Source of the DNA: an uncultured Desulfovibrionaceae bacterium
GTDB taxonomy: Bacteria; Bacillota; Dethiobacteria; DTU022; UBA8154
Length of the DNA: 64,000 nucleotides
NCBI GenBank assembly: GCA_964581355.1
Contig: CAZOOA010000003.1
Span: 8,503-72,502 of the forward strand
Reading direction: 5' to 3'
Position 1 is the first letter of the stretch; each line of letters begins with the position of its first letter. The translations under genes and the position numbers were made by a program. The notes under the pieces are model-generated. The model did no database searches. It was given only the letters and a program-made list of their open reading frames with translations, and had not been told where the DNA came from. Positions 13,332-25,713 of this stretch are shown here, piece by piece.

Positions 13332-13354
13332 TATTTCATAATTTAATATGTTCT

Positions 13355-13432
13355 TGAAAAAGGCAAACCTGCCGAAAGGCAGGGACGCAAAGCCATGGGT
13401 CTAAAGCGGTGCCAGGACTGCCAGGTTGCCAG
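13355..13432 (+). ncRNA. c-di-GMP-I (GEMM-I) riboswitch
   Basis: GGCAAACCTGCC-GAAA-GGCAGGGACGCAAAGCC...GGGTCTAA...GCCAGGTTGCC: GAAA tetraloop P2, GCAAA junction, GGTCTAA P3, GTTGCC closing P1. Confidence 0.92.
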
Positions 13433-13472
13433 GATGCATAATCCAACTGCTTTTTTTGCAAGCTGACTGATT

Positions 13473-13681: not shown

Positions 13682-15496
13682 ATGCGTGAAAAGTTCTCTG
13701 CTGAAACCCGTTCAGACCAGGATGGGTATATAGAAATTAAAGATGGCCACGTAACAGTCCATGAAGCGTCCGGGCAGGGCATTCCCGTGATTCTTCACCC
13801 TGATCCCGGGGCTGCTGTTCGAGTGAATGGCAAAGAGATTGATTCTCCCAGCACCCTTAAAGCTTCGGATGTAGTGGAAATTGAACCGCTGGAAGAGACC
13901 GTCTCAGGTTCAGTTGAGGCGAGAATTGCTCAAGATGGCATGAAAGCGGAAGTCAAAGTCAGTCCCGGCCTGCAGATTACAAGAAAGGTAGATGATTTAT
14001 CGGCCCAGGGCGAAGTCTATTTGAAGCTGGAAGAAAACCGCCAAAAATATCCCGATATTTCAGTTCAAGATGTCAATAATGCCCTGGCAGAACAGGGTGT
14101 GGTCTTTGGCCTTGATGCACCTGCCATAGAACAGGCTGTGAAAGAGGCAGCAGATGAGTGGGTGGTTGTAGCTCATGGAAAAGAGGCAGTGCCGGGAAAA
14201 GATGGTTACGTGGAACTCCATGTCGATGTGGAGCTTAAGTCGATAACCCATGATCAGGAAGCCCTGTCCCGGGTAGATTACAAGGAAAAAATAGAAATCC
14301 CTTCGGTCAGTGAAGGAGATCTGCTGGCCACAATCCATCCACCTGAACCTGGTAAACCTGGAAAACGGGTTACGGGGGAAGCGCTGGAACCACCTCCCGT
14401 GGAACCAGTCCAGGTGCAGTGCAAAGAAGGCTGTACACTAAGCCCCGAAGGAGACAAAGTATTAGCTCAAAAGGCCGGGCGACCTGTGGTTGAGGGCAAA
14501 AAGAATGAAAAGTTCACCATCGCTCCCCTATTCGTCCATAATGGTGATGTGGACATGGATAGTGGAAATATTCGTTTTTCCGGTGATGTTAAAATAGCAG
14601 GTGATGTGCATGAGGGCATGCTTATTGAAGGGGCGGGCAGTGTGGAAGTTATGGGCAGTACGGCAGGGGCGCGCGTGTTAGGCGGGCAAAACGTGGTTTT
14701 TCATAAAAACCTGATTAACACAAAGGTTGAGGCAGGGGCGCTGAAAGGGTTATATAAATCCTTACTGCCTCTTTTAAGTGAAGTTGAAGAAACATTATCG
14801 ACTCTGTATTATGGTGTGGAACAGCTGAAAGAAGTGATGACCAGCAGGGGCAAGTCTGTTGAAGAAAAGGAAACCGGCCGCCTGGCCAAACTAATCGCCG
14901 ATAAAAAGTTTGAGCAACTTCCTCAAACAGTGGAGGAAGTCAGCAGCCTCGTTAACCAAACGAATTTTGTGTTACCTCGAATACTAACAGATGCTATCAG
15001 CAGGTACGAAAACCTGTTTAAAGAAATGGGTTTCCTTGATATTCAAAGCAATGAAGAGTTGATGCAGTTGGTCGAAGAAGCTAAGGAAACCAGGGATTTT
15101 GTGGAGCGAACCATGGATGAACTGGTAGGGGATGTAATGGCCAGTTATGTACAGAACTGCACAGTGGTTTCCAGCGGCAATATTACTATAAACGGGCCAG
15201 GCACTTATAATTCTTACTTCTATGCTGGAGGGGATGTTCATATTGAGCGAATTTCCAGGGGTGGAGGGATTACGGCAGAAGGAAACCTCTTTATAGGAGA
15301 AGCGGGTTCGCCAGGCATGGCCATAAAACCGAGGAAAATTCAGCTTTCTTCCAGTTCTGTAGCCAAATTTCGCAAAGTATATGAAAATGTTATTGTTGTT
15401 TTTGGTAAACGGATCCACAAGTTTGAAGAAATGCAAACAAATGTGAAAGTATATTACTCTGCCGAAGATGACCGGATCATAATTATCAATTTATAG
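13682..15496 (+). CDS. FapA / DUF342 family protein, paralogue 2
   Basis: VAHGKEAVPGKDG, VDYKEKIEIPSV, VHNGDVDMDSGNIRFSGDV; collinear with paralogue 1. Confidence 0.87.
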   Translation: MREKFSAETRSDQDGYIEIKDGHVTVHEASGQGIPVILHPDPGAAVRVNGKEIDSPSTLKASDVVEIEPLEETVSGSVEARIAQDGMKAEVKVSPGLQITRKVDDLSAQGEVYLKLEENRQKYPDISVQDVNNALAEQGVVFGLDAPAIEQAVKEAADEWVVVAHGKEAVPGKDGYVELHVDVELKSITHDQEALSRVDYKEKIEIPSVSEGDLLATIHPPEPGKPGKRVTGEALEPPPVEPVQVQCKEGCTLSPEGDKVLAQKAGRPVVEGKKNEKFTIAPLFVHNGDVDMDSGNIRFSGDVKIAGDVHEGMLIEGAGSVEVMGSTAGARVLGGQNVVFHKNLINTKVEAGALKGLYKSLLPLLSEVEETLSTLYYGVEQLKEVMTSRGKSVEEKETGRLAKLIADKKFEQLPQTVEEVSSLVNQTNFVLPRILTDAISRYENLFKEMGFLDIQSNEELMQLVEEAKETRDFVERTMDELVGDVMASYVQNCTVVSSGNITINGPGTYNSYFYAGGDVHIERISRGGGITAEGNLFIGEAGSPGMAIKPRKIQLSSSSVAKFRKVYENVIVVFGKRIHKFEEMQTNVKVYYSAEDDRIIIINL

Positions 15497-15500
15497 TAGG

Positions 15501-16265
15501 TTAATCACCTTTGCCTCCCCATTTGGTGACGATAAAGGCTCCTGCCAGTGCGGCAATAAAAACAGGAATACTTATGTTATCTGGAAACAGTGCGCGTCCT
15601 GACCCAATGATTAAACCGGCGATAAAAAAAGAAAAGAAGGGCCTGTAGCGTTTGTATATTAGGGATATTACCCGTGCCAGGACAATAAGACCCAAACCAC
15701 AACCCAGGGCAAAAACACTCAATGGCAGCCAGGTAAAAAAGCGGAGAAAGCCCAGAATTTCATGGTAAATTCCCAGGATTAGTAAAATAGCGCTGCCTGA
15801 TATTCCCGGAATTAACATGGTTGCGCTGGAGATAATTCCGGCAGCAAAAATAACTGGAAGAGACTCAGGGTTCCCCAAGTGAAACATACCCAGGGGTTCC
15901 AAGGCAATCAACAATCCCAGAAGTGCCCCTCCTGCCAGGTAAAAAATACGTTTCCAGGTAAAAGGGATAAACAACCGGTTATCCCTGTCTTTTAATAACA
16001 GGGGGGCAGAAGCCCATAGTGCGCCCAGAAGAAAAGCATAAGATGGCTCCGGCCAGCTGTCCAGCAGGTGGCTGAAAAAATAGGCCCAAATGACTAGCCC
16101 TCCACCTACCCCCAATCCAAACGTTATATAAGGCCTCAGGTTAAGTGAAGCTATATCCTCCAATACCTGATTGTAAATCCCCATGATTACAAAAGCTGTT
16201 CCTCCACTCATTCCGGGCAAGATCAGTGAAAGGCCGAGAAACATCCCCTGCAGCAATTTTTTCAA
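15501..16265 (-). CDS. DUF368-like integral membrane protein
   Basis: ILPGMSGGTAFVIMGIY and MLIPGISGSAILLILGIY repeated motif; multiple TM segments. Confidence 0.8.
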   Translation of the reverse strand: MKKLLQGMFLGLSLILPGMSGGTAFVIMGIYNQVLEDIASLNLRPYITFGLGVGGGLVIWAYFFSHLLDSWPEPSYAFLLGALWASAPLLLKDRDNRLFIPFTWKRIFYLAGGALLGLLIALEPLGMFHLGNPESLPVIFAAGIISSATMLIPGISGSAILLILGIYHEILGFLRFFTWLPLSVFALGCGLGLIVLARVISLIYKRYRPFFSFFIAGLIIGSGRALFPDNISIPVFIAALAGAFIVTKWGGKGD

Positions 16266-16436
16266 TCCAGTGCCTCCATCCAGTGTCTTCTCATAGAAGG
16301 GAGTTTTTGCATCATGTTATTTTTCTACCTGAGCTTTGAGTATACCTTCTTTAATTGACAAAGAGATTGAGTTATAATAGCATTAAACTGTTAAGCACAG
16401 GTATTAATAAAACCTGGAGCGAAGGAGGATATAATT

Positions 16437-16604
16437 ATGGAAGAAGTAAAAAAAGTGCTGCAGGATTCTGCCCCGGAAGGAAAGCTTCCCTGTATCATGG
16501 CTTTTAAAATAGCCCGGGAGCATAACGTCTCAGTTGCTGAAGTAGGGGACCTTTGTAACGAATTGAAAATAAAGATTGTCAACTGTCAGTTGGGTTGCTT
16601 TTAG
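16437..16604 (+). CDS. 55-aa Cys-rich small protein ending CQLGCF (not in ORF track)
   Basis: AAGGAGG RBS then MEEVKKVLQDSAPEGKLPCIMAFKIAREHNVSVAEVGDLCNELKIKIVNCQLGCF*; four Cys. Confidence 0.8.
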   Translation: MEEVKKVLQDSAPEGKLPCIMAFKIAREHNVSVAEVGDLCNELKIKIVNCQLGCF

Positions 16605-16923
16605 TATGATAAACCGTGTCTTGGCGCTGTCGTCCGGACGACTGGGTAACTCTGTGGAAGGCGCTAAGGTTCCCTCGGGGTCCTCGGGCGGCCTTCCCGG
16701 TTTAACTCCCGTCCAGGTCGATCCCGGCGGCCGACGTCCTGTCGGCCGGACCGCCCGAGGACCTTCGGTCACCAAACGCCTTTGGCCACAGAGACCAACG
16801 TCGCCGGACGAATGCGCCATCTCCCCGGTTAGGGGAGCGGAGTGTTGAAAACCAGATCTTCGATCATAAGCAAGGTTTTTCATCCCCTGTTGTGGCCCGC
16901 GAGGGCCGTGGCGGTTAGTATGA
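16601..16923 (-). mobile_element. Non-coding hairpin-rich element, family 1 copy A
   Basis: TTAGTATGA direct repeat at 16601 and 16915; inverted repeat ATGATAAACC (16606-16615) / GGTTTTTCAT (16874-16883); conserved end shared with 25304-25352 and 58082-58131. Confidence 0.7.
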
Positions 16924-16984
16924 AAAACCGTGTATTGGCGCTGTCGTCCGGGCGACTGGGTAACTCTGTGGAAGGCGCTAGGGT
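16915..16984. repeat. 70-bp direct repeat of 16601-16670 (partial head-to-tail second unit)
   Basis: 66 of 70 positions identical, period 314 bp. Confidence 0.95.
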
Positions 16985-17023
16985 CTGCGGAAGGTGGATG
17001 TAAGAGAAAAGAGGTGCGGCTTT

Positions 17024-18277
17024 GTGTTAACTGTTTTGCCAGTTTATCAAGCGCAGGAACAGATTCTTCATTCCATGTCAGGTGTCACTACCAGTGCAAT
17101 GCTGGCTGCTGCTGCTGAATCCCTGGGGAAAGTGGTGGCAGAGCAGGTGGTATCCCCTGAAATGGTTCCACCCTGTGCCCGTTCGACCATGGATGGTTTT
17201 GCTGTCCGTTCTGAAGATACTTTTGGAGCAACGGACAGCCTGCCCTCGCTTTTGCTATTAAAAGGTAAGATTTCCATGGGGGTAGAGCCAGAACATAAAC
17301 TGGGTTCCTGGGAAGCCATGGAGATTTCTACCGGTGGCATGCTGCCAGAAGGTAGCGATAGTGTTGTGATGCTGGAATACTGTGAAGTGATGGGAGACCA
17401 GGTGGCTGTCTACCGACCGACGGCACCACTGGAAAATATTATTTCCGCGGGTGAAGACTATAATCCGGGTGATGAAGTGCTGCCCTTGGGGCATAAAATC
17501 AGACCTCAGGATTTAGGAATTCTGGCTGCACTGGGGATTACAGGGGTTCGGGTTTACTCCCCGCCCCGGGTTGTTATTTTTTCCACAGGAGATGAAGTGG
17601 TCTCCCCTGATCAATCGCCGAATCCAGGCCAAATCCGTGATGTAAATGGACCGACCTTGTCAGCTCTGGTTCTGGAAAGCGGGGGGATTCCAGACTACCG
17701 GGGCATTATACCTGATAGCCATGAAGCCCTGGAAGAGGGACTTCTTCAGGTGCTGGACAACTGTGACCTGGTGCTTGTTTCGGGTGGAAGCTCCGTTGGG
17801 ACAAGGGATGTTACAGCCCGGGTTATGGATCAATTGCCGGGAAACGGTGTGTTGTTTCACGGTGTTTCCATGCGTCCGGGAAAACCTCTGATTTATGGAG
17901 TGGGACAGGGCAAGCCTGTTTTTGGACTGTCCGGTAATCCTGTTTCTGCCATATTTGGTTTTTTGCTGTTTGTCAGGCCCCTGCTGCGTCAACTGCAGGG
18001 TCTGCAAGCTTTTCCGGCTTACCCACCGTACGTGAAGGCCTGCCTTGACACGAACTTTGCCTCACCGGGGGGGCGGGAAGATTATGTGAGAGTTATGCTT
18101 GATGACTTTGCGTGTCAAGACAAAGAAACGGCATCCAATGATTTGCCTCGGGCAAAACCGGTTTTTGGAGGCCCGGGGCTTTTGAACCCTGTAGTCAAGG
18201 GGGACGGTTACTTTGTAATTCCCAGGGATGTAGAGGGTCTGAACAAAGGAAGCCCTGTGAAAGTATTTCTATGGTGA
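17024..18277 (+). CDS. moeA: Molybdopterin molybdotransferase MoeA
   Basis: STMDGFAV, ISTGGMLPEGSDSVVMLE, STGDEV, SGGSSVG, RPGKP, LSGNP motifs; GTG 17024 after GAGGTG. Confidence 0.93.
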   Translation: MLTVLPVYQAQEQILHSMSGVTTSAMLAAAAESLGKVVAEQVVSPEMVPPCARSTMDGFAVRSEDTFGATDSLPSLLLLKGKISMGVEPEHKLGSWEAMEISTGGMLPEGSDSVVMLEYCEVMGDQVAVYRPTAPLENIISAGEDYNPGDEVLPLGHKIRPQDLGILAALGITGVRVYSPPRVVIFSTGDEVVSPDQSPNPGQIRDVNGPTLSALVLESGGIPDYRGIIPDSHEALEEGLLQVLDNCDLVLVSGGSSVGTRDVTARVMDQLPGNGVLFHGVSMRPGKPLIYGVGQGKPVFGLSGNPVSAIFGFLLFVRPLLRQLQGLQAFPAYPPYVKACLDTNFASPGGREDYVRVMLDDFACQDKETASNDLPRAKPVFGGPGLLNPVVKGDGYFVIPRDVEGLNKGSPVKVFLW

Positions 18278-25303: not shown

Positions 25304-25713
25304 ATACTAACCGCCACGGCCCTTGCGGGCCATGGGCAGGGGACGAAAATGGTTTTCAAAACCGTTTCCCGCCTGGATGAGGTCCGCTTTCCCTGTATCG
25401 GCGACTTTGTCAAGCGGCTAAATAGAAATGAAGCTACCTTTTACGGTATACTCTGGTTGCACGCTCGCCACACCAGGGCAGCGCGGCGGTTGCCGGACCC
25501 GCCCGGTGCATGTGCAGTGAAGATGCAAGTTACTGCGAAACGAGGGCCGGGAGGGGACCCGGCCGGCATGGATGCCGGCCGCCTGGCAGCCGAAGCATGG
25601 AGGCTGAGTCTGCAGGTTGGTCCCCGGAGGGCCAAGTAGAGCAGCTTAACTTGCCTGAAGCGAACCTAAACCGGCGGTTCCGGCATTCGCCAACGCTGCC
25701 ATTTTCATACTAA
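25304..25713 (+). mobile_element. Non-coding hairpin-rich element, family 1 copy B, inside the pur operon
   Basis: ATACTAA at 25304-25310 and 25707-25713; CGAAAATGG (25344-25352) / CCATTTTCAT (25699-25708) inverted pair; 28 of first 29 bp identical to the reverse complement of copy A's end. Confidence 0.7.

Follow-up and report, generated by a model that had tools for sequence, protein, structure and literature searches.

Organization of the locus

The region upstream of moeA was studied in the genome of a soda-lake bacterium that belongs to an uncultured Bacillota family (G000; 3.24 Mb, 175 contigs). The window, i.e., the whole analysed stretch of 64,000 nt (contig CAZOOA010000003.1, positions 8,503 to 72,502), carries an insert at 16602-17002 between a small conserved open reading frame (ORF) and moeA. 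This insert is probably composed of two independent members of a superfamily of non-autonomous, non-coding mobile elements, which lie head to tail and were inserted site-specifically next to TA/TAGTA without duplication of the target. The following features were distinguished at the locus.

16437-16604 (+): conserved 55-aa ORF with no function assigned (from the ORF list)
16602-16606 (+): left boundary pentanucleotide TAGTA, either a target motif or a TA target plus an element-borne GTA
16607-16920 (+): element 1, a full-length family A copy of 314 nt, TGATAAACC...GGCGGTTAGTA (blastn, fold)
16916-16920 (+): TAGTA common to both elements, closing element 1 at its 3' end and bounding element 2 on the left
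16921-17002 (+): element 2, a putative mini-element made of a family A 5' module (16921-16984) and a short degenerate 3' tip
17001-17033 (+): right flank with the ancestral TAA of the 55-aa ORF, the ribosome-binding site (RBS) AAGAGG and the probable moeA start GTG at 17024

A repeat search of the window returned a direct repeat of 77 nt (16594-16670 and 16908-16984; 91% identity) with a spacing of 314, which equals the length of element 1. The match of 66 out of 70 nt between 16601-16670 and 16915-16984 (94.3%), described in the initial annotation, was reproduced by blastn. The 43-nt core of the repeat occurred at these two sites of the window alone, and 0 of 100 shuffles gave a match. The order of the 55-aa ORF, a full element, a 70-nt head and moeA was identical in ENA ERZ27265986, JGI 3300000557 and NCBI GCA_003555305.1. 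Because these three assemblies are independent, it may be concluded that the tandem arrangement is real and is not an assembly artefact. Two other public contigs from ENA and JGI (L088 and L090) leave the locus of the 55-aa ORF through the repeat toward ACR_tran transporter and DnaJ genes; they are probably chimeric contigs caused by the element family.

The repeat had been labelled a partial duplication of a single element. It was found instead to consist of a full 314-nt element with a second, shortened family member at its end. The head of element 2 was 98.6% identical to copies on contigs C147 and C29 and 100% identical to those on C16 and C121 (97-100% overall for copies on other contigs), yet only 94.3% identical to its neighbour at 16601-16670. 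At 16638 and 16609, the family consensus is G and A, respectively, and element 1 carries private changes at both positions; the four differences between the two units are ordinary family polymorphisms. The 3' part of element 2 (16985-17002) comprises 18 nt that run to GAAGGTGGATGTA and can be read as a degenerate 3' tip, which would make element 2 a mini-element like others in G000.

Members of the repeat family

When 16601-16926 was used as a blastn query, 43 matches were obtained in G000; at least 8 of these were near full length at 89-95% identity, and many contigs ended inside the repeat. In copies aligned with their flanks, the left end read (T)TAGTA followed by TGAAAA, and the right end read ...CCCCTGTTGTGGCCCGnnnGGGCCGTGGCGGTTAGTA; every member terminates in a hairpin and then GGTTAGTA. 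The 11-mer TAGTATGAAAA was present 74 times in G000 and heads at least three families, A, B and C, in which the first ~60 nt and the interiors are wholly different and the head and the last ~45 nt are common. Counting with family-specific anchors gave at least 117 5' ends in G000. Deletion derivatives (e.g., C113 and C2:64943) and chimeras were common and included A heads on B bodies, B heads on A bodies, and heads attached to tails with nothing in between.

Terminal inverted repeats were absent from family members regardless of the boundaries chosen. No reading frame was conserved: the families differ in the frame opened by the 5' ATG, which is interrupted at codon 6 in many B copies and at codon 21 in C, and a protein-coding insert of the RPE type was therefore rejected. 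An autonomous copy was not found among paired ends 0.5-3 kb apart, which enclosed ordinary genes alone (M23 peptidase, bactofilin, acyl-CoA dehydrogenase). The element family is non-coding and non-autonomous.

Tandems similar to that in the window were a regular feature of the family. Head-to-tail contact of a 5' end with the 3' end of another element was observed in 16 of the 117 cases, and the tandem junctions read had the form GGTTAGTATGAAAA with a single TAGTA. The partners were often of different families, with A->B, B->A and B->C found besides A->A. Re-insertion of an element into its own end, one of the two origins proposed in the initial annotation, fits these data, since unit 2 starts exactly at the terminal TAGTA of element 1. 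The other proposal, rolling-circle amplification or duplication of element A, is not supported, in view of the mixed partners and of the greater similarity of unit 2 to distant copies.

Composite arrays of elements were also observed in G044 (L070-L073), a congener of DeMMO6_36 (G001), which is a metagenome-assembled genome (MAG) from another genus of the same family as G000. The composite itself is repeated there, its 3' module is unlike R1 (the model built on the 3' module of the elements), and the body of another family, which is without its TGAAAAT head, interrupts one family past an internal ...CATTAGTA. A small hairpin repeat, GGGGACAC...GTCCCC (GGGGACA-type), is nested within some copies (G000:C64:4081-4467; L045 and L047 of G001) and is a separate, independent repeat family.

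Integration sites

The boundary logo was built from 101 non-tandem 5' ends. Before TGAAAA, the percentages were T91 A93 G87 T87 A88; the base preceding TAGTA was T in 62%, and farther upstream the sequence was merely G-poor, so that conservation beyond (T)TAGTA was weak. The flank after GGTTAGTA was variable, often with T first, and the left and right variants of the flanking motif did not co-vary. TAGTA is rare in the genome: the two strands together carry 1928 sites, and 677 of these lie outside ORFs. In 33 of 97 cases, the stop codon of an upstream ORF (at least 80 codons) was the TAG or TGA of TAGTATGA. The 55-aa ORF of the window is among the ORFs that stop inside TAGTATGA, its stop codon TAG (16602-16604) falling within the left TAGTA of element 1.

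Relatives of the 55-aa ORF (82-87% identical; L096, L097 and a contig of run X5) end with TGC TTT TAA, after which the RBS and moeA follow at once. In the window, the sequence is TGCTTTTA (GTATGAT......GGTGGATGTA) AGAGAAAAGAGG, with the ancestral TAA and RBS still recognisable at 17001. Thus, TGCTTTTA is joined directly to AGAG at the empty site of the relatives, whereas GTATGAT...GGATGTA stands between the two in the window. The right flank is collinear with TTTTAAGAAAAAGGG...GTGGTAAC of a related strain (a loose end from run X5) and with L096 and L097. When Logan contigs were searched for strain-level empty alleles, they were found to break at repeats, and their joints were cross-repeat artefacts; one loose end was informative.

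In two comparisons of G001 with G012, the common flank reached only ...TTA. The GTA may be part of the target at some sites or may be carried by the element. An element delimited as GTA...TTAG with a duplicated TA was rejected, as it predicts GGTTAGTAGTATGAAAA at tandem junctions, which was never seen. The orientation of the elements relative to neighbouring genes was random (51 same, 40 opposite).

A further copy, of family C and 410 nt long, is located at 25304-25713 (-) between purE and purB. Its 5' end lies 8 nt upstream of the purB GTG start, and the purB RBS directly abuts the element; in relative L100, the purB RBS comes immediately after the purE stop. The relatives available for this empty site are much diverged, and the comparison fits TA and TAGTA targets alike.

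Secondary structure

The fold of element 1 was assembled from minimum-free-energy (MFE) predictions and alignments, and its parts are listed below.

16606-16615 (+): 5' strand of helix P1, ATGATAAACC, pairing with 16874-16883 (MFE folds)
16623-16665 (+): 5' arm, the core of the 70-nt unit, with long-range pairing to 16775-16818 (MFE folds)
16729-16747 (+): apical hairpin GGCCGAC-GTCCT-GTCGGCC (alignments)
16775-16818 (+): 3' arm, complementary to the 5' arm
16874-16883 (+): 3' strand of P1, GGTTTTTCAT, preceding the terminal hairpin in every copy, whatever its family
16887-16914 (+): 3'-terminal hairpin CTGTTGTGGCCC-GCGA-GGGCCGTGGCGG with 12 pairs, followed by TTAGTA

As single-stranded DNA (ssDNA), element 1 folded at -85.5 kcal/mol versus -57.8 +/- 4.0 for shuffles (z = -6.88). 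The 70-nt unit alone folded no better than its shuffles (RNA z of +0.19 and +1.11 for the two units; 108/200 and 177/200 shuffles at least as stable), and its core forms one arm of the rod-like fold of the whole element. Therefore, the selection on single-stranded structure that had been suspected in the initial annotation was borne out for the whole element of ~314 nt and for the 3' hairpin, but not for the local 70-nt hairpin. The two changes from U-A to U-G, which had been read there as preserving pairing, carry no weight, because the 70-nt fold is not significant and the differences are family polymorphisms.

Helix P1 joins the two ends of the element. In each copy, ~10 nt at the 5' end (ATGAAAAnnn) are paired with nnnTTTTCAT, which immediately precedes the 3' hairpin; in the consensus (helix 1), 95.4% were paired, with compensatory ACC/GGT <-> TGG/CCA exchanges between families. 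This pairing also bears on the segments GGTTTTTCAT (16874-16883) and ATGAAAAACC (16920-16929), which had been interpreted as the abutted ends of a circular intermediate. Both are present and lie 36 nt apart, as described, but GGTTTTTCAT does not represent an abutted end: every copy carries it internally, paired with the 5' ATGAAAAnnn of the same copy.

The 5' arm sequences of families A, B and C are unrelated, and the complementarity between the arms is kept. The 3' arm contains a block, A(A/C)GTCGCC, common to the families of G000, with a related CAAGTCGC in the other genus. The stem of the apical hairpin covaries (helix 7; 96.6% paired, 3 pairs with double changes), and its loop, (N)TCC(A)TG, is kept in both genera. 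The loop and linker blocks kept across genera were the apical loop TCCATG, CTTCGC, CAAGTCGC and ATTTTCATCC.

The terminal hairpin was evaluated in an alignment of 68 sequences from two genera. In this alignment, 92.5% of the cells were paired, compared with 35-58% in slid-partner controls, and compensatory changes were found from GC to AU in 18 sequences and from CG to UA in 9 and in 3. Five conserved G.T/G.U pairs of this hairpin exist on the plus strand only and would be A.C mismatches on the other strand.

For the whole element, an RNAalifold consensus was derived from 11 full elements, comprising families A and B of G000 and seven copies from the other genus. Of its 55 pairs, 27 showed double compensatory changes across families and genera; covariation across homologues was thus present at the level of the whole element. 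Paired cells amounted to 91.9% versus 80.5% in shuffles, and the covariation score was 0.379 versus 0.174 in shuffles (0/500 reached it) and 0.05-0.08 in slid controls. Among the consensus pairs, G.U was more frequent than A.C (30 versus 21), which points to the plus strand as the folded strand. It is well supported that the element is under selection for a plus-strand single-stranded fold that juxtaposes its two ends. Watson-Crick covariation fits RNA and ssDNA alike.

Distribution and search for a partner enzyme

Model R1 found 62 copies in G000, 109 in G001 and 16 in G012. A class-wide scan for the 3' module (149 genomes, 60 genera), which was stricter than the family scan, detected it in these three genomes only. 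The laxer family scan gave one or two weak matches each in G042, G007 and G008, and many related bodies were found by blastn in G044. G043 is an example of a sister species free of the elements. Of two pattern scans of genome contigs, the first gave no match and the second gave G001 alone. The elements are mobile, as demonstrated by their patchy, lineage-specific bursts, their precise boundaries and the empty sites in relatives.

No enzyme that could move the elements was recognised. For Y1 TnpA (PF01797), G000 gave 0 matches and G001 a single weak one, and the 3' module was absent at six Y1 loci of relatives; for IS110 (PF01548), there was no match in G000. IS91 was rejected as a partner because a Y2 remnant of 115 aa with unrelated flanks was all that G000 contained. 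A reverse transcriptase (RT) was rejected as well: there is one in G000 and none in G001, with no correlation with element load. Clustering of multi-copy ORFs in G000 and of ORFs beside elements in relatives revealed no recurrent enzyme. The sole multi-copy transposase-like ORF family in G000 is a two-copy family on C18 and C43, which we presume to be IS1634-like. Xer/dif mimicry was dismissed, as no dif-like site was found at 7 or fewer mismatches to the dif site of B. subtilis.

The IscB element of G000 (G000:C1:144577-145467) and one of its TnpB elements (G000:C25:28800-29900) have a common end hairpin of the CCCACGG...CCGTGGG type, and a second TnpB is located on C24. These IS605-type passengers are orphaned in the assembly, which contains no Y1 tnpA. 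It should be considered that the G000 MAG may be without insertion sequence (IS) contigs; therefore, the absence of a transposase from it is not proof.

Searches at the RNA level were negative. Rfam 15, with its models of HEARO/omega and IS605-orfB RNAs, introns, ribozymes and riboswitches, gave no match at E <= 5 in 16200-17200 and, at the gathering score, nothing in the window but a c-di-GMP-I riboswitch elsewhere; at E <= 1, there was no match in loci with other element families. No promoter or terminator was associated with the element, and none of the RNA runs held its sequence. A literature search by sequence strings returned nothing relevant.

Neighbouring genes

The 55-aa protein was found on 11 public contigs, and none of the 26 homologues of its ORF had a Pfam domain. 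In relatives (L096-L098), the ORF is always directly upstream of moeA, overlaps it in L097, and has a C-terminal CxxC-like motif, NCQLGCF. It may encode an unannotated molybdenum-cofactor accessory protein. The moeA-like frame is open from GTG 16994, and its upstream part is element or flank sequence. Gene calls, including that in L089, and relatives place the start at GTG 17024. No Rfam match to a molybdenum-cofactor or other riboswitch was obtained upstream of moeA. The c-di-GMP-I-GGC riboswitch of the window is at 13353-13434 (+; 76.5 bits, E 2e-16), upstream of the gene of a 604-aa FapA-domain protein (13682-15496).

Discussion

The independent insertion of two family members, which is the likely explanation of the locus, can be outlined as follows. 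Elements would insert site-specifically, without a long duplication, 3' of a (TAG)TA motif. Because each element ends in the same motif, the 3' end of a resident element would be a preferred and selectively neutral target, and its use would yield tandems, mixed-family ones included. P1 pairing would bring the two element boundaries together within the conserved plus-strand rod; the folded single strand, ssDNA or RNA, may be the form recognised by a trans-acting enzyme not present in the assembly, which would join it next to TA/TAGTA. The chemistry would most resemble either insertion of the IS200/IS605 type 3' of a motif that also stands at the right end or core-sharing recombination of a circle junction. 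It is conceivable, albeit rather doubtful, that the elements belong to a new class of mobile element. In such a class, a folded single strand, whether ssDNA or RNA and perhaps circular and rod-like, would be active, its ends drawn together by P1 beside a strand-specific hairpin; either an enzyme of a type so far unconnected with transposition would process it, or the elements would be stand-alone guide- or bridge-like RNA genes that direct their own insertion next to TAGTA. If so, the tandem at 16916-16920 would document, in nature, the targeting of an element's own end.

Several observations weigh against site-specific insertion of the kind proposed here. More than one placement of the cuts within TAGTA fits the data, and TA/TTA alone demonstrably pre-exists at three compared sites. 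The right boundary of element 2 is placed provisionally because its 3' tip is degenerate. At the left ends of families A, B and C, neither a conserved hairpin nor any counterpart of the right-end hairpin was found. Orientation relative to replication was unbiased, with 56/115 elements on the positive-GC-skew strand (p = 0.85). GC skew agreed with the local gene majority in 112/115 contexts, so this proxy for the replication strand works, and the lack of bias argues against classical lagging-strand insertion of the IS200/IS605 type. The partner enzyme was not found among the families checked (Y1 TnpA, TnpB, IscB, IS110, IS91 and RT), and model R1 found nothing beside 18 transposase loci of relatives, IS110 loci included. 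Both tnpB genes of G000 have flanks with CCCACGG-type hairpins unrelated to the element, and the single iscB, at a contig end, has an unrelated upstream RNA and hairpin; thus, TnpB and IscB/HEARO were rejected as partners. A phage origin was likewise rejected, since the pattern matches in IMG/VR were due to chance (R1 E of about 0.09) and the 3' module was absent there. No excision product, circle or transcript was observed in public contigs and RNA runs.

Other origins of the tandem were weighed against the same data. Collapse or chimerism of repeats during assembly could be suggested by the short-read contigs that break in the repeat and by L088 and L090, which join the locus to unrelated genes through it, but the recovery of the same arrangement and flanks in three independent assemblies from different projects makes an artefact extremely improbable. 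Local head-to-tail duplication or rolling-circle amplification of element A, including IS91/Helitron-like read-through or a multimeric circle, would account for the head-to-tail order, for a 3' hairpin located 6 nt from the end as in rolling-circle transposons, and for a junction able to fold as GGTTTTTCAT...ATGAAAAACC; an IS91-family remnant is also present in the genome. This origin is very unlikely, however, since unit 2 is 94.3% identical to unit 1 versus 97-100% to C147, C29, C16 and C121, many tandems unite different families, unit 2 is internally deleted rather than a truncated read-through, the Y2 gene is reduced to a 115-aa fragment whose flanks are unrelated, and a single identical arrangement was found in the three assemblies. 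A classical DDE-type MITE (miniature inverted-repeat transposable element) that duplicates a TA target (IS630/Tc1-like, Correia or RUP) could be suggested by the TA on both sides of the composite insert against one TA in relatives and by the MITE-like size, copy number and intergenic location. The chances of this are slighter still: terminal inverted repeats are absent for every boundary choice, GTA...TTAG with TA duplication would give GGTTAGTAGTATGAAAA whereas GGTTAGTATGAAAA was found in the tandem junctions read, and G000 contains no multi-copy transposase ORF beyond the C18/C43 family.

The elements could also be primarily structured-RNA genes of ~300 nt (guide, bridge or omega-like RNA, or a ribozyme) with an unlinked protein, their spread as DNA being a by-product. 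The conserved loops and covarying stems across families and genera, the plus-strand G.U enrichment and the absent replication-strand bias suit such genes, and PATEs of IS605 elements are reported in many cases to encode omega RNAs used in trans (PMC10055086). We nevertheless regard this as unlikely. The elements have no associated promoter or terminator, their orientation relative to genes is random (51 same versus 40 opposite), no RNA run holds their sequence, no Rfam family matches, HEARO and IS605-orfB RNAs included, and the TnpB and IscB loci of G000 have unrelated RNAs and ends; furthermore, the compensatory changes suit ssDNA equally.

Among known systems, the transposition mechanism of IS608 and ISDra2 provides the basis for comparison with PATEs. 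These are gene-less IS200/IS605 derivatives moved in trans by the Y1 HUH TnpA (PMC10055086). The elements studied here resemble PATEs in that both inverted terminal repeats and a long target duplication are absent, in having a target-adjacent-motif-like TAGTA immediately 5' of the left end and the same motif, resembling a transposon-encoded motif, at the end of the element, and in having a sub-terminal hairpin that is strand-specific and lies within a few nt of the right end. They are likewise non-autonomous and multi-copy, with TnpB/IscB without tnpA in the same genome. They differ in that they have no left-end hairpin like the right-end one, keep a covarying fold over the whole 300 nt, and show no replication-strand bias (56/115), and in that no Y1 transposase was found in G000 or beside the 3' module in relatives. 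IS200/IS605 elements have imperfect sub-terminal hairpins of similar form at their two ends, both bound by one TnpA, and they insert into the lagging-strand template. Because the left-end hairpin, the Y1 gene and the strand bias were all absent, the family was not filed under IS200/IS605.

IS110/IS1111 and IS607 recombinases join a circle junction to a target with a common short core, and insertion of these elements into the ends of other repeats is known. The likeness lies in the lack of inverted repeats and of a true duplication and in a short core (TA or TAGTA here) at both junctions and once in the empty site. In contrast to IS110/IS1111, there is no DEDD transposase in G000, the 3' module is absent beside the IS110 genes of relatives, and target specificity beyond TA/TAGTA is weak, against a specific target of roughly 11-14 nt with a 2-nt core there. 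Moreover, a double-stranded DNA recombinase of the IS110/IS1111/IS607 type would not explain selection for an intramolecular fold. REP/REPIN sequences with RAYT or TIRYT, which are 20-40-nt palindromes that bear a GTAG/CGTC tag, often form inverted pairs and flank a Y1 gene, were rejected, as the unit here is ~300 nt with a single oriented 3' hairpin and no GTAG/CGTC end tag, and G000 is devoid of Y1 genes.

BOX elements of Streptococcus pneumoniae are modular boxA-boxB-boxC repeats. Like the present elements, they combine a common head and tail with interiors that can be exchanged or deleted, number over 100 copies, fold strongly and have no known transposase. To our knowledge, no flanking pentanucleotide has been defined for BOX elements, nor have they been reported to share a boundary motif head to tail, whereas the elements here have a flanking TAGTA that is shared head to tail. 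The bcr1/BCR repeats of the Bacillus cereus group offer another parallel. In PMC6542083 (citing Okstad 2004 and Kristoffersen 2011), they are associated with the pentanucleotide TTTAT and a 'site-specific recombination-like mechanism', and the mobilising enzyme is given as not known. In both cases, non-coding interspersed repeats of 100-400 bp occur in Bacillota in tens to about 130 copies, and mobility is tied to a specific pentanucleotide, TTTAT there and TAGTA here. The sequence and the host lineage are unrelated, and the elements here are larger and modular, form several families with common ends, and have a long-range rod fold backed by covariation. The family is a type of small non-autonomous bacterial repeat for which no partner is known and whose higher-order fold is unusually well supported.

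At the locus itself, the finding is mundane: two abutting mobile repeats separate a small conserved ORF from moeA, the two genes forming one operon in relatives. The family is noteworthy because two genomes, which represent different genera of an uncultured Bacillota family, each contain more than 100 copies and because its rare boundary pentanucleotide often supplies the stop codon of the upstream gene. Such repeats break short-read assemblies, create chimeric public contigs and mislead the calling of gene starts and stops. If the partner is found, the family could prove to define either an unusual branch of transposition driven by HUH enzymes or recombinases or a new branch that depends on RNA.

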